A stretch of DNA of 35,118 bases. It comes from a virus (taxonomy: Duplodnaviria; Heunggongvirae; Uroviricota; Caudoviricetes). Shown here piece by piece: positions 21,001 through 26,149 of this stretch (within the stretch, counting starts at the first letter, position 1; the number at the start of each line of letters is the position of its first letter). A program made the position numbers. The stretch lies in IMG/VR virus record IMGVR_UViG_2529293069_000022. One strand, given 5' to 3'.

Positions 21001-24000
21001 CCAGAAGAAATAGAATTAAGGAAACAATCATTAGTATTGATGATACGTCAACAAAAGAAAAATGAGCTGATTTCACTTCCTGAAGGATGGGAATCAGTCT
21101 TGAATGAATCATTCGCTGCACCAGATGATGTTTTCAACATAGACTTAGAACAGATCAATCGAAAAGATAAATATTTCTTATACAAAAAGAATGAAGCGAA
21201 TAATCTTAGACTTAAAACTTTAAAAAAAGAGCTTAACGATTTGTTAGATATGGATAAAGCCTTAACAAATGCTAAACAGAAAATTACCACATTAAAGGAA
21301 CAACTCACTATACTAAACAAAGATTATTCTAAAAAAACCATTGCTGATATAGAGTTAACGTTCCATATTTATAGCGGTAGACTTATCCAAAACTATCAAC
21401 GTGGCTTAGGACTATTTATAGATGAAGGGAATGGAGATAGACTGAGGTTCTGCACAGCAGAAAAATCAGAACATGACGCAACCATGTCAATGAGTTCTGG
21501 ACAGCTATCGGCATTGAGCTTGGCCTTTTTCCTATCACTTAATAAAGTGTATGCTAAGTCCCCCCTTGTTCTGATAGATGATCCAGCTCAATCTCTTGAC
21601 GAGATAAATATAGCTTCTTTAAGCGACTTGCTACGCTGTGAGTTAAGTAATAGGCAGTTGATACTCTCATCACATGAAGATAATATTTCTTCATATCTCA
21701 GGTTTAGATTCATGCGTGCAGGTTTGACGCAAAAGCCATTTAACATGCAAACACATACAAGCAAATAAACAATACTGGCTAAGATGTCAATGATATCTTA
21801 GCTTTTTTATATAATAGTGGAGTATATCCAATATACTAGTTAATATAAATAGTTATATATTCGTCTTTGAAATAAGGAATAAACATGCAAAAGTTCTTTC
21901 AAAAAATAAATTCTTTGACATATAATAAAAAATTAGCACCCGTCATATTAAACTATGATTTTAGCACAGGCATTAATAAAACAACCAAAATAGATTCATC
22001 GAACAGCAAAAGAGAATTACGCAGCATTTTACTTTCAATCTGTGCATTTCTTATTTTTTTCATATCTACAATCTTTACTATTAGATATTTAATTTTCATT
22101 TCAAAGTTCCTTTCCAAAAATCACCCAGATTATATGGAGTTTTATCATTTATTCATTTACATAATCCCCTTACTGGGAGGAACTTTAATCGCTATATGTA
22201 ATCATAAATATCGATATACTAAGCCTTTCAATGATGGGATACTATTTTTATCTTCCGCATTAACGGCTTATTTCCTTTTAGACAAAAATATTCCATTTAA
22301 AGGACAAATAGGTAATATAGTAAAGATCGTATTCGGACCAGATTATCAATATACAACCTCCTTATTCTTAGCAACTTGCCTTATAGGGAAAACGTTGATA
22401 GCATTCGCAGAGTTTCTCTACGAGCAAAAAAACATGTTTTAAAAAACTTCTCCTAACATATTAATTGTGCTATCTAACTGATAGCACAATCAAACCAACC
22501 TCTTTAATAAACACGCCATGATTGGATAAAATAATATAGGCCAGATATATAGATCAAAAAAGAATACAATGCTTACTAAAAAACCCAACCAATAATTCAT
22601 TTTCGACACATCCCAATCGATAGAGATACTTGCATTAATAGCGATAACATTAAAAAAAATAATCAAAGCAATCAGAATGTATAAATTTCTTTCAGTTTTT
22701 GACATCACCATCTCCTTTTCATTTTTTTTAAATATATATATTTTATTTATATTAATTGCAAATATTTATTAGCAAGGGCTAACCCATCGAAGCGCTACGC
22801 TGCTTCTTCGAGTTCCCCTTGTTTTTTCCGCCCTTCGGTTGAAAAAAATTAAAAGCAAAATCAAGACACTACATTGACATTATTCGCATCTATCATATAA
22901 ATAAATTAAGCATAAGGAATATGCTTTTATTTAATTATATGAAAAGGAGTTCATATGGTCGAAAGTAATACTTTTAATAAAATTGTTGTAAGTAAGCATT
23001 CCCGTAATGGAAGCATTAACGAAGCGAAGCTCTCACACAACCAGCTTCGTTCTCATTGCGTCAGTGTCAGATTAAATGATGCAGAGCTAAAGCTTCTCAA
23101 TGAGAAACGTGGCCGTCATCGTAAAGGTGAATGGGTTCGTTTAGCCCTCATTGAAAAGCTTCCAGTAACTGTCCCTCCTATCAACTTAGAAGCATGGAAA
23201 TCTCTGAGCGAAATATCACAGAAGCTGAACAAGCTTGTCGCTCATCTGGATAACAAAAGCCACGGAAGCTCTCTGACGCAAACAGAACTATTCGCAGTGA
23301 AGCGCCAGATATCTGAGCTTCGCATGAAGCTGATTACTGCTGACTTATGGAAATAAATCAATGAAGGGGATGCAGAAGATAAAGCGAGGTAAGAACTTCG
23401 CTGGCGTAGTGTTTTATGCATTGAGACCAGCTTCTCATCACAAAGTTGATCCAGTTGTCGTAGGTAGCAATATGATGGGGTGCCTCGCTAAAGAGCTAAT
23501 AGCTGAGTTTGGTGCTACAAAAACACTTCGCCCTGATGTGGCTAAACCCGTTTGGCACAACTCGCTTCGCTTACCTAAAGGTGAATCACTAACGGCTAAA
23601 CAGTGATCCTACATCGCAGATGACTACATGGCAAGAATGGGGTTCTCTGAAACGCATCTCAGATGCTACATCCTACATGACGACGAAGACGGCCAGCACA
23701 TCCATATCATCGCAAGCAGAGTTTCTCTTGATGCAGGAAAGCTCTACCTCGGCAAGAACGAGAACCTGGCAAGCACAAGAATAATTCAGCAACTTGAAAG
23801 AGATTACAATCTGACAAGAACCAAAGGACCGAAAGCTTCTCCAGCAGCGCCCTCACCTACACCGAAGCTCAAAAAATCCCGTAATGAGCTGATGATAGAA
23901 AAGAGAACTGGTGAGCTATGCCCAAAAGCAATCATCCAAAACGCCCTTGATGAACTGCTTGATACCAGGCAATCGATTACCGACTTCGTGCAACAGCTTA

Positions 24001-26149
24001 TGGCACAAAATATCAGGCCAATCCCTAACATTGCTTCTGCGGGTAAGATGAACGGTTTTTCATTCGAATATAGGGGGATTGCTTTCAAAGCTTCGCAGCT
24101 CGGTAAGGGTTATTCTTGGTCAGCCTTGCAGAACAAACTCAACTATCAACCGGAACGTGATAATGCTTTCCTGTTTGAACTGAAAGCATCTGTCAGTGAA
24201 GCGCCTTGTACGTTCATGACTACAGATGCTCCTGAAATCACAACAAGAGTGGTTCACAGCCCCATAGAAGCGCTTATCCATGATAACCGTGCTGGTCAGG
24301 ACGAATACACTAACGCTTCTGTAAAGCAGTTTCACTTAGAAGCTGGTGCTAAAGAAGCGTTAAAAGAAGCCCCCAACCAAAGCTATGCAGTTTCAGCGTT
24401 CAGGTGGTTGGAATACATCCCCTACCTCGATGTAATTTATCGTATGTTGAAAAACCTCAAAATCCCAACCCTTAAACGTCCTCTAAAACACAAAACCATC
24501 ACTGACGTGAGAGTGGTAGAGATTATGCCTCTCCCCCAAAAAAATCGCATCGAATCAGCACCTCAATCCAGAAGAGCTTCGCTTTCGATGTAAGGCTAGC
24601 AAGCCTTTTTGGATAAATATATCCCAATAAATTGATCGTTTATACCGATCGATATATTGACATTGATAGATTGAATCTATCATTGATTCATAATCGATCG
24701 GTACAAGTGATTTGCGTTTCTTACGAACTAAGTCAAAATGTCAATTTACATGAAATCATCTAACGATATGATTTAACTAGTCTATTTACTTATTCATTAG
24801 CTCAAGCGCAGGGTTTGAAATGGCAACTACCATCTCAACTGTAAGCCTGGACGGTTTCATACATCACCGAATATGACTTCATCTTGAACACTAAGGAACT
24901 TGTATGAGCATCTCCGCTACGAAAAGCAGGAAGAAAGAAGCTGAAGCTGGTCTTTCTGATGATCCTCGGCAAACGGAAATCACGACACCCAATTTTGTGC
25001 TGTTTGGTGAAACTTTCACATTTATTGAGACTTTCTCTGCCACTGTCATCGACTCCGATCCAGGCAATGGTCATATCTGGGTAAAAACCAACACAGGGGA
25101 TGAGAAGCAGATTTCTGACTACGGTGTCCCTTTCAGAAGTTCACACACTATCCATAAATACGAACTTCGCCAATATAGTGAGGATGGTTCGTATGATGCA
25201 TATAAAGATGCGCTTATCGTTAATAAGAAAACGGGTGAACACGAGGTAAACTTAAAAAGAAAAACCATTATTATCCCCGCTTTTCTGACAATGCTATTTC
25301 ATACTGCCTCCACAGCATCGTATTACAGAGCAATGCCTGTTCCAAAGTTTCTCACCGTTATTTTCATTTTACTTTGTGCTGCTGCACTTATTTCATTTCT
25401 CACACTACCCTGGGGATTTAAAGACGGCTACATGTGGAGCGACCACAAATACATGTGGTTTACATATCTTTTCTCAAGAGTTGGAAGTTTTATTTGTATC
25501 AATTTGATGAAAAGAAGAAGCCAGAAATTTGAAAATGAACTTAGAAATCTTATTGAGTCAGTAAAGCGCTACAATTTAAAAATAAAAAAGGATAGTGTGG
25601 TATGAAAAAAATCATAATCGTAGGATTCGTTTTTCTGACCTTGGCAGGTTGTTCTTCAGTAGGCAACCAGTCATTGAAAAATGAGACGCAGGAAAGTGTG
25701 AAAACCAAAATTGTTAAAGGCAAAACTACAAAACAGGACGTGTTAGCATCGTTCGGTGAACCTGACAGCCGTTCTTTGATCGATGGTGAAGAACAATGGT
25801 CATACACTATGTATAACAGCCAGTCCAAAGCAACCTCTTTCATCCCCGTTGTGGGACTGCTTGCAGGTGGCGCAGACTCACAAACTAAATCTCTGACAGT
25901 TTCTTTCAAAGGCGAAAAAGTCAGCACATACATCTTTAATGCTGGAACAAGCAACGTGAAGACTGGCATTTTTTAGATAAAAGACAAAACCAGCATCAAG
26001 GGAAAATTTAGCCCGCAGTTGATACCTACGGGCTTTTTACAGAAACATAAATCACTTTTTAAAGAAAGTGATTATCTTTTTCAGCCTCCCCCAAACTTTA
26101 CTGTTCATTTCTACAGTCTCAGTATTTTCCTTTAAAGAGGATCTTATTG

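Follow-up and report, generated by a model that had tools for sequence, protein, structure and literature searches.

A relaxase gene interrupted by one TGA in the mobilisation module of an Escherichia coli chromosomal island

Introduction

What does a single stop codon in the middle of a relaxase gene say about the element that carries it: is the gene decaying, freshly dead, or still read through? The question is raised by the 35,118-nucleotide stretch filed in IMG/VR as the virus record IMGVR_UViG_2529293069_000022. This stretch, which we call the window and mean at its whole length, is the E. coli contig AKLT01000035.1 (GCA_000267125.1). It holds a short accessory gene of MobC/NikA type (here mobC) and, directly behind it, a relaxase gene with an in-frame TGA. 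A first reading made without database searches (the sequence-only reading) had proposed a decayed mobilisation module, which had either lost autonomous transfer or used stop-codon read-through. With a probability of about 0.85, we conclude that this is the mobilisation (MOB) module of a chromosomal mobilisable island whose relaxase was killed by one recent nonsense mutation at Trp82.

A relaxase gene with one lesion

The relaxase frame consists of two open reading frames (ORFs), one of 81 amino acids (aa) at 23361-23606 and one of 321 aa at 23628-24593. Both lie in the same frame, and the TGA at 23604-23606 is the sole interruption between them, within the codon series AAA CAG TGA TCC TAC ATC. 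Straight translation gives LTAKQ, the stop, and then SYIADDYMARMGF, and homology to intact relaxases runs through this point uninterrupted. The sequence-only reading had the frame resume 8 codons after the stop; the next ATG does lie there, but the frame is never broken and homology continues at once. When Trp is restored at the stop, a single match to the Pfam family PF03432 (HUH relaxases with a MobA/VirD2-like nuclease domain, classes MOBP/MOBQ) spans it (residues 19-151, model positions 1-132 of 132, E 1.4e-26) with 93.7 bits against a cutoff of 24.6, above the curated threshold. As the stop lies inside one such domain, the arrangement is not a chance pattern, and the in-frame TGA noticed earlier is borne out.

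Alignment to intact relaxases identifies codon 82 as an invariant Trp. Together with W82, the residues Y19, H106, H113 and H115 are invariant in the family (alignments A1 and A6). The histidines form the motif H106-x6-H113-x-H115, and Tyr19 is N-terminal; from the PF03432 family, we take these to have the catalytic and metal-binding role. The interruption falls between them: the 81-aa fragment keeps Tyr19 and lacks the His motif, while the 321-aa ORF has the motif and lacks Tyr19. A full-length uninterrupted frame is thus missing, owing to the TGA at codon 82, and PGAP labels the gene in the RefSeq genome of strain 493/89 as a "relaxase/mobilization nuclease domain-containing protein", a pseudogene with "internal stop". 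Intact 410-aa homologues with 92% identity are found on chromosomal contigs of Salmonella, Citrobacter and other Enterobacterales, and the homologues listed are nearly all full length (371-430 aa). The relaxase gene of the window is an ordinary pseudogene, already flagged in RefSeq.

When did the stop arise? Except for one base outside genes, the window region is identical to the chromosome of 493/89, a sorbitol-fermenting E. coli O157, and it is 99.7-99.8% identical to O55:H7 strains. The sister allele of the O55:H7 lineage (WP_000677819.1) belongs to the same island at the same site by ssrA, with 99.7% nucleotide identity over 32 kb, but has TGG instead of TGA at codon 82. This codon is TGG in five of five O55:H7-lineage genomes (CB9615, DEC5A, RM12579, FDAARGOS_946 and 2013C-4465), all annotated with the intact 410-aa protein, and also in the more distant relatives L002 (strain NWU_3) and L003.

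Among 5,426 complete E. coli genomes the TGA allele occurs in 493/89 only, and nine of these genomes carry the module at 99% identity or more. The 127 E. coli matches to the relaxase are all chromosomal. The typical O157:H7 genomes listed match the 40-nt ssrA end alone, and therefore the island is absent there. An index of public assemblies lists the 81-aa fragment in 86 blocks and the 321-aa one in 67. The TGA is present in each locus of this allele that was retrieved, from about a dozen separate assemblies as well as the complete 493/89 genome, and these loci are identical across 2.2 kb save for position 24662.

Against CB9615, the relaxase gene shows one difference in 1,233 nt: the nonsense change at 23606. 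The accessory gene differs at one site, which is synonymous, and neither the candidate origin of transfer (oriT) described below nor the promoter-like region differs at all. On these comparisons, the lesion is a single recent G-to-A transition at 23606, since five O55:H7 genomes keep TGG and the gene shows no other change. Because the stop is the only difference in 1,233 nt, the gene is better described as freshly killed than as decayed. The term "decayed" of the sequence-only reading is therefore too strong: the relaxase is inactivated, but the module is otherwise intact. What decay there is sits at the level of the island and not in the relaxase gene.

The accessory gene and its control region

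The accessory ORF ends 4 nt upstream of the relaxase ATG. Its 133-aa product passes no Pfam or NCBIfam threshold, the best match being the NikA-like family PF21983 with E 0.018 and 15.6 bits against a cutoff of 27. In all of the 79 related loci open to examination, a homologous ORF has its end at the relaxase start or shortly before it. Among 22 relatives aligned, nine match NikA-like PF21983 (best 3.9e-11) and five match MobC PF05713 (best 1.1e-7). By conserved synteny and transitive homology only, the protein would be a ribbon-helix-helix accessory protein. The earlier label "MobC-like" holds for the position and for the relatives, but the window protein itself stays below threshold.

Upstream of this gene lies a promoter-like site, whose TTGACA is invariant in a 17-locus alignment; a strict consensus promoter scan did not report this TTGACA/TATAAA site. 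A 17-nt inverted repeat overlaps the -10 region and the 5' leader, and is possibly an operator for autoregulation. Table 1 collects the features of the module and of the island around it.

Table 1. Features of the mobilisation module and its island in window coordinates; a slash within a sequence marks the candidate nick.
Feature	Position	Strand	Basis
Copy of exact ssrA 3' end, 26 nt, att core, island left end	9807..9832	+	0 mismatches, 0 expected by chance
P4-type tyrosine integrase of the ssrA island, intact	9956..11227	+	Pfam Arm-DNA-bind_3, Phage_int_M, Phage_integrase
Candidate oriT, two adjacent hairpins	22770..22847		alignment, fold, covariance model
Preferred candidate nick, 5'-GTTAGCCCTTG/CT-3'	22771..22783	-	analogy with MOBP nic consensus
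Alternative candidate nick CCG/CCCT, between 22830 and 22831	22828..22834	+	resemblance to R1162/RSF1010 nick
Oligonucleotide sequences for the nick candidates, 5'-GAGTTAGCCCTTGCTTAT-3' and 5'-TTGTTTTTTCGCCCTTCGG-3'			
Promoter-like TTGACA-16 nt-TATAAA upstream of accessory gene	22874..22901	+	sequence reading
17-nt inverted repeat, TCATATAAATAAATTAA and TTTATTTAATTATATGA	22893..22942		repeat search, 88% complementary, kept in relatives
Putative ribbon-helix-helix relaxosome accessory protein, 133 aa, intact	22955..23356	+	synteny, Pfam matches of relatives
Relaxase pseudogene, 410 codons, PF03432 family	23361..24593	+	PGAP (493/89), Pfam, alignments
Premature TGA, G to A at 23606, Trp82 (TGG) to stop	23604..23606	+	codon comparison, alignments
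Downstream ORF, 321 aa, residues 89-410	23628..24593	+	called as separate gene in many assemblies
GATC-rich inverted repeat, ACCGATCGAT ... ATCGATCGGT, with inner TGATAG/CTATCA hairpin (here the slash separates the two arms)	24635..24711		repeat search
AlpA-family regulator/excisionase of the shared backbone	33121..33327	-	PF05930, E 5.1e-19

A conserved candidate origin of transfer

Does the module still have a site on which a relaxase could act? The region upstream of mobC (22740-22950), named by the sequence-only reading as the place to look for oriT, indeed contains a conserved two-hairpin candidate at 22770-22847. Hairpin 1 (about 22772-22822) is long and imperfect, and hairpin 2 follows at about 22823-22846. 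The element opens with the 13-mer AGCAAGGGCTAAC (22771-22783), which is the most widespread word and the most conserved stretch in the upstream regions of the family and is present in 48 of 79 related loci. When the upstream regions of 17 loci are aligned, there is no similarity before 22771 and then near-identity up to the start codon. As DNA, the two-hairpin element folds with -14.7 kcal/mol (z -3.1), and relatives folded one by one show the same architecture with differing apical stems. RNAalifold, run on a MAFFT alignment, missed hairpin 1 with its 3' arms out of register, and per-sequence folds and a covariance model were used instead.

This covariance model, R1, was built from ten relatives. 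It finds one copy per locus in 53 loci, upstream of the relaxase and always on the relaxase (+) strand, with 45.1 bits (E 8e-6) for the window copy. In the R1 alignment, which is fitted to the model and thus favours structure, 91% of cells are paired as compared to 31-64% in slid controls, and 13 pairs change on both sides as compared to 5.2 in shuffles (0 of 500 reach it). No Rfam family matches within 21800-25200, and a literature search for the 13-mer returned unrelated primer matches only. The IncQ2 plasmids pFECR and pBRST7.6 also have the 13-mer, as the core AGCAAGGNNTAAC followed by a hairpin, at a distance of about 110 bp upstream of mobC. Model R1 gave the IncQ2 and Pseudomonas plasmid versions no significant score; what links them to the window is therefore the 13-mer together with alignment by eye. 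L002 and L003 have another copy of the 13-mer within their ParB gene, but no hairpin accompanies it and it seems to be a chance occurrence.

In one family branch, unrelated ORFs separate mobC from the oriT-like element, which lies 1.5-9 kb upstream of it (for example at 998-1076 in locus L055, 6283-6361 in L057 and 7922-7983 in L058, among others). A second cargo slot may thus exist there, between nick region and mob promoter. Within hairpin 1, at 22784, the O55:H7 and O157 sequences have an inner stem AACCC where nearly all relatives have AACTC. The variant breaks one base pair (fold -13.7 as compared to about -15.5 kcal/mol), and it may weaken the oriT candidate in both lineages.

Where would such an origin be cut? 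In the oriTs of R1162/RSF1010 (MOBQ1) and RP4 (MOBP11), an inverted repeat is followed about 8 nt later by the nick, and the accessory gene is adjacent. The MOBP nic consensus is YATCCTG/Y, and in R1162/RSF1010 the nick GCG/CCCT lies 8 nt after the inverted repeat. By analogy, the nick of the window element is probably on the - strand, between 22773 and 22772. There, 8 nt separate the inner inverted repeat from the core that follows it, and the mob genes lie on the side of the repeat, so that they would be transferred last. We prefer this position because the arrangement, including the gene order known from RP4, is that of RP4-type origins. The alternative on the + strand, CCG/CCCT, lies 9 nt after the outer repeat and is conserved mainly within Enterobacterales, which makes it less general than the 13-mer. 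The core itself is unlike both TAAGTGCG/CCCT of R1162/RSF1010 and YATCCTG/Y of RP4, and the nick site given here is a predicted one.

Could the element have another role altogether? It might be a bidirectional terminator or insulator at the edge of a cargo slot, with the real oriT elsewhere, for example in the GATC-rich repeat just past the relaxase stop (24635-24711). The T run after hairpin 1, the T and A runs that flank hairpin 2 and the distance from mobC in some relatives would all suit this explanation, as would the conservation of the second repeat, which 47 of 83 related loci have in the corresponding place. A terminator, however, conserves structure and not a 13-nt sequence, whereas the 13-mer is kept from E. 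coli to Acidithiobacillus, Pseudomonas and the IncQ2 plasmids, whose relaxases share no more than 38-50% identity. The occurrence of the element once per locus, each time on the relaxase strand, also speaks against a terminator, and the succession of inverted repeat, 8 nt, conserved core and mob genes on the repeat side fits MOBP oriTs. The downstream repeat, for its part, is narrower in distribution: the relatives from Pseudomonas, Acidithiobacillus and the IncQ2 group lack it. Its role may be that of a second cis site, or of an operator that controls the 233-aa gene behind it. We regard a terminator as unlikely. Judged by conservation and geometry, the two-hairpin element is likely an oriT.

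Can the relaxase still be made?

A stop codon in E. coli need not be absolute, and the sequence-only reading had offered read-through as one of its two options. The TGA would then be functional, with tRNA-Trp decoding UGA often enough for a meaningful, perhaps stress-tuned, amount of wild-type relaxase. UGA is usually misread by tRNA-Trp, and the product of such near-cognate decoding would be the wild-type protein with its exact ancestral residue. The gene also has no second lesion, but the youth of the mutation explains this equally well. The ancestral and sister alleles have a plain TGG, and hence recoding at this codon is not a conserved trait; a U as fourth base makes for strong termination in E. 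coli; and the RNA of 23595-23665, which surrounds the stop and extends downstream, is no more stably folded than its shuffles (z +0.47). Selenocysteine or programmed UGA recoding fares no better, as TGG/Trp stands in every relative checked and the same RNA shows no structure beyond that of its shuffles. An alternative code with TGA as Trp was rejected because the window is E. coli and its other genes are normal in table 11. Functional read-through is thus improbable. A background leak of UGA is all that is to be expected, with no sign of programmed recoding, and as a designed mechanism read-through falls.

Could the pieces work without being joined? The two fragments, or the 321-aa product alone, might retain a function as a two-piece nuclease, as a protein that binds oriT or the coupling protein, or as a dominant-negative inhibitor of related relaxases. 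Both ORFs are open, conservation across the family is strong over the C-terminal 250 residues, and re-initiation 22 nt past a stop is possible in bacteria. The break, however, lies inside a single PF03432 domain between Tyr19 and the His motif, inspection of the sequence reveals no evident Shine-Dalgarno upstream of 23628, and no relative is naturally split at this point. We consider such a split function very improbable. That the stop is a sequencing or assembly error in a draft contig and the gene truly intact has next to no probability, being already refuted by the A at 23606 in the complete 493/89 genome and in all fetched loci of about a dozen assemblies, by the 86 and 67 index blocks of the two fragments, and by the nature of the lesion, a substitution and not a homopolymer indel.

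Some points do weigh against a freshly killed relaxase as the whole explanation. In E. coli, UGA is leaky: stop codons are read through at rates of 1e-3 to 1e-2, which stress can raise to about 10% (PMC10057733), and a trace of wild-type relaxase may be made in this way. The AlphaFold model of the relaxase, based on a shallow alignment, reaches a pLDDT of 43.5 and is too poor to place W82 in the fold; profile searches of solved structures were uninformative for both the relaxase and the accessory protein. The assignment of the oriT and the position of the nick are themselves inferred. Furthermore, no second ssrA att core occurs in the window or in the 32 kb downstream in 493/89, and without a right-hand att repeat the island may have been immobile already before the relaxase mutation.

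Plasmid relatives of the module

To which known systems is the module related? In its mode of action it would correspond to the mobilisation regions that small MOBP or MOBQ plasmids carry, and it most resembles the IncQ2 group (the pTF-FC2/pTC-F14 group, MOBP14), represented here by pFECR and pBRST7.6, and judged from its sequence the window relaxase appears related to the MOBP14 relaxases of these plasmids. Their relaxase is also of PF03432, with about 38% identity over residues 6-302, and their mobC-type gene likewise lies immediately upstream of the relaxase on the same strand, preceded by the core and hairpin described above. We take the AGCAAGGNNTAAC core to be their functional oriT. MOB-suite types pFECR and pBRST7.6, the two checked among several plasmids at about 38%, as IncQ2/MOBP. 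IncQ2 plasmids, whose relaxase family is MOBP14, depend on a helper conjugative system (PMC6856555).

Unlike IncQ2, the window module is chromosomal and is not carried on a small plasmid of the IncQ type. The C-terminal 250 residues of the relaxase are unrelated to those of IncQ2, and the window relaxase is inactivated. IncQ2 plasmids have a five-gene mobA-E set as compared to the two mob genes of the window module. A nucleotide search of plasmids gave no match, and among plasmid proteins that match the relaxase none covers 80% of it. Higher-ranking plasmid relaxase matches come from Pseudomonas (46%) and Salmonella (60%), and MOB-suite types them as non-mobilisable. With the NCBIfam TraI/MobA(P) model, the relaxase scores 67 bits against a cutoff of 250.

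The island, its relatives and its cargo

Beyond the O55:H7 sister, the module has further chromosomal relatives. E. coli NWU_3 and 1283 carry P4-integrase islands by paoD, which share a backbone with the window at 78-96% nucleotide identity. This backbone corresponds to window 13549-17014, the hxs operon, and to 22771-34278, the stretch from the oriT candidate to the DUF6387 gene with the AlpA gene included; homology ends at 34278. Shared are the hxs operon, the oriT candidate, mobC, the relaxase and the 233-aa gene, and further two tyrosine recombinases with a 543-aa protein, AlpA and DUF6387. In contrast to the window, the NWU_3 and 1283 islands have retained, next to DUF6387, a P4-type integrase of their own, and also a serine recombinase and ParB/RepB; their relaxase is intact, and the genes in their cargo slot are different. 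In NWU_3 (locus L002, 8600-37600) the island lies between paoD and mscS/argO, loci far apart in K-12, which hints at a chromosomal rearrangement.

Another group of chromosomal islands with a P4-like integrase and a relaxase but without a type IV secretion system is known as ROD21/EARL (PMC6035254). Membership in this group was rejected: the EARL relaxase is of the MobA/MobL family and that of the window of PF03432. ROD21/EARL islands also carry TraD and type IV pilin genes and use a tRNA-Asn site, whereas the window has neither gene type and uses ssrA. A homologue does exist in S. Enteritidis P125109.

At its left end the island begins with the ssrA att core, and no full tmRNA gene is present in the window. 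Upstream of the core lies a lambdoid prophage (gam, bet, exo ... int; window 1-8300). The position of the ssrA 3' end between this prophage and the P4-type integrase indicates tandem occupation of the ssrA site. Megablast of the integrase region finds matches in 2,010 E. coli genomes, and those listed lie beside ssrA.

Is this still an integrative mobilisable element (IME)? As described, the module has its own relaxase and oriT without mating-pair-formation or coupling-protein genes, as an IME would, and no such conjugation machinery is found among the 45 annotated features of the 42-kb 493/89 stretch (window 2700 onwards). The integrase and AlpA are present, but of the two att repeats expected there is one core only, and the native integrase of the backbone is missing from the window. 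The island is a mosaic and probably an anchored remnant in both the O55:H7 and the 493/89 lineage, since the integrase, serine recombinase and ParB/RepB of its relatives are missing and there is no second ssrA core.

Between the two backbone stretches lies a variable cargo slot with a partial integrase and a Lamassu-type (ABC-three-component) defence system (17613-21768) of LmuA, a middle component and LmuB. A 1-bp deletion at 20264 breaks the LmuB frame into 19448-20302 and 20479-21768, while CB9615 has an intact protein of 773 aa. Next to a DUF6119 gene lies the HXS operon (hxsA, C, B and D; 11850-16900, - strand), whose anti-phage system has been described recently (PMC13128918). Compared to CB9615, hxsB has an 11-bp deletion at 15913, and DUF6119 is frameshifted in both lineages. 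In CB9615, lmuB and hxsB are intact, and hxsC and ypjA are frameshifted, the hxsC frameshift being found only there. Three lesions are thus specific to the window lineage: the relaxase stop, the hxsB 11-bp deletion and the lmuB 1-bp deletion. The earlier suggestion that this cargo sits on a once-mobilisable backbone is supported, as HXS and Lamassu stand on a backbone that is found with intact relaxases in other Enterobacterales chromosomes.

Two further observations concern genes downstream of the module. A protein with a long Pro-Glu dipeptide repeat (26052-27344, - strand) varies in repeat copy number among assemblies of the same clone (380-430 aa), which may be real hypervariability or assembly collapse. 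The two tyrosine recombinase genes adjoin each other at 28650-32804 (- strand), followed by the 543-aa protein (annotated as 'DNA-binding protein', no Pfam match), and this trio is kept in the backbone of all close relatives. It may serve in resolution or form a second integration system.

Conclusions

How would the module have worked, and what is left of it? In intact relatives, the accessory protein and the relaxase would assemble on oriT, where Tyr19 would nick one strand. The relaxase-DNA complex would then be exported via the type IV secretion system of a co-resident conjugative element, supplied from outside because no such genes are annotated in the stretch. In the 493/89 lineage, translation would stop after 81 residues and essentially no active relaxase would be made, since the fragments separate Tyr19 from the His motif. 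The island would thereby have lost its self-encoded mobilisation. Of the two outcomes considered at the outset, loss of autonomous transfer holds in that the relaxase is inactivated, while read-through is not a designed feature. The accessory gene, the promoter region and the oriT candidate are still intact, and a cognate relaxase acting in trans could mobilise the DNA. Very low-level mobilisation is also conceivable through background UGA read-through, which would rebuild the wild-type protein.

As a pseudogene, the relaxase lesion matters little in itself. It is of use as a lineage marker that separates sorbitol-fermenting O157 from its O55:H7 precursor, and it would mean that the self-encoded mobilisation of the island was lost during the recent stepwise emergence of O157. 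What is new here is only mildly so: a conserved oriT-like structure that defines a family of chromosomal islands. A wider proposal, tentative and with the odds against it, is that the two-hairpin AGCAAGGGCTAAC element is the oriT of a large uncharacterised family of Enterobacterales chromosomal islands with MOBP14-related relaxases and anti-phage cargo beside the nick, and that the cis-acting oriT of 493/89 still works. If this were true, the defence island of 493/89 would still be movable, by a related relaxase in trans or by rare UGA-to-Trp read-through.

The module defines a family of chromosomal mobilisable islands that ranges from E. coli to Pectobacterium and Pantoea and has a candidate oriT that can be recognised; anti-phage systems (HXS, Lamassu) are present in the E. 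coli members that were examined. Should the oriT prove real, it would offer a simple sequence handle to find such islands and to test how defence systems spread among enteric bacteria.

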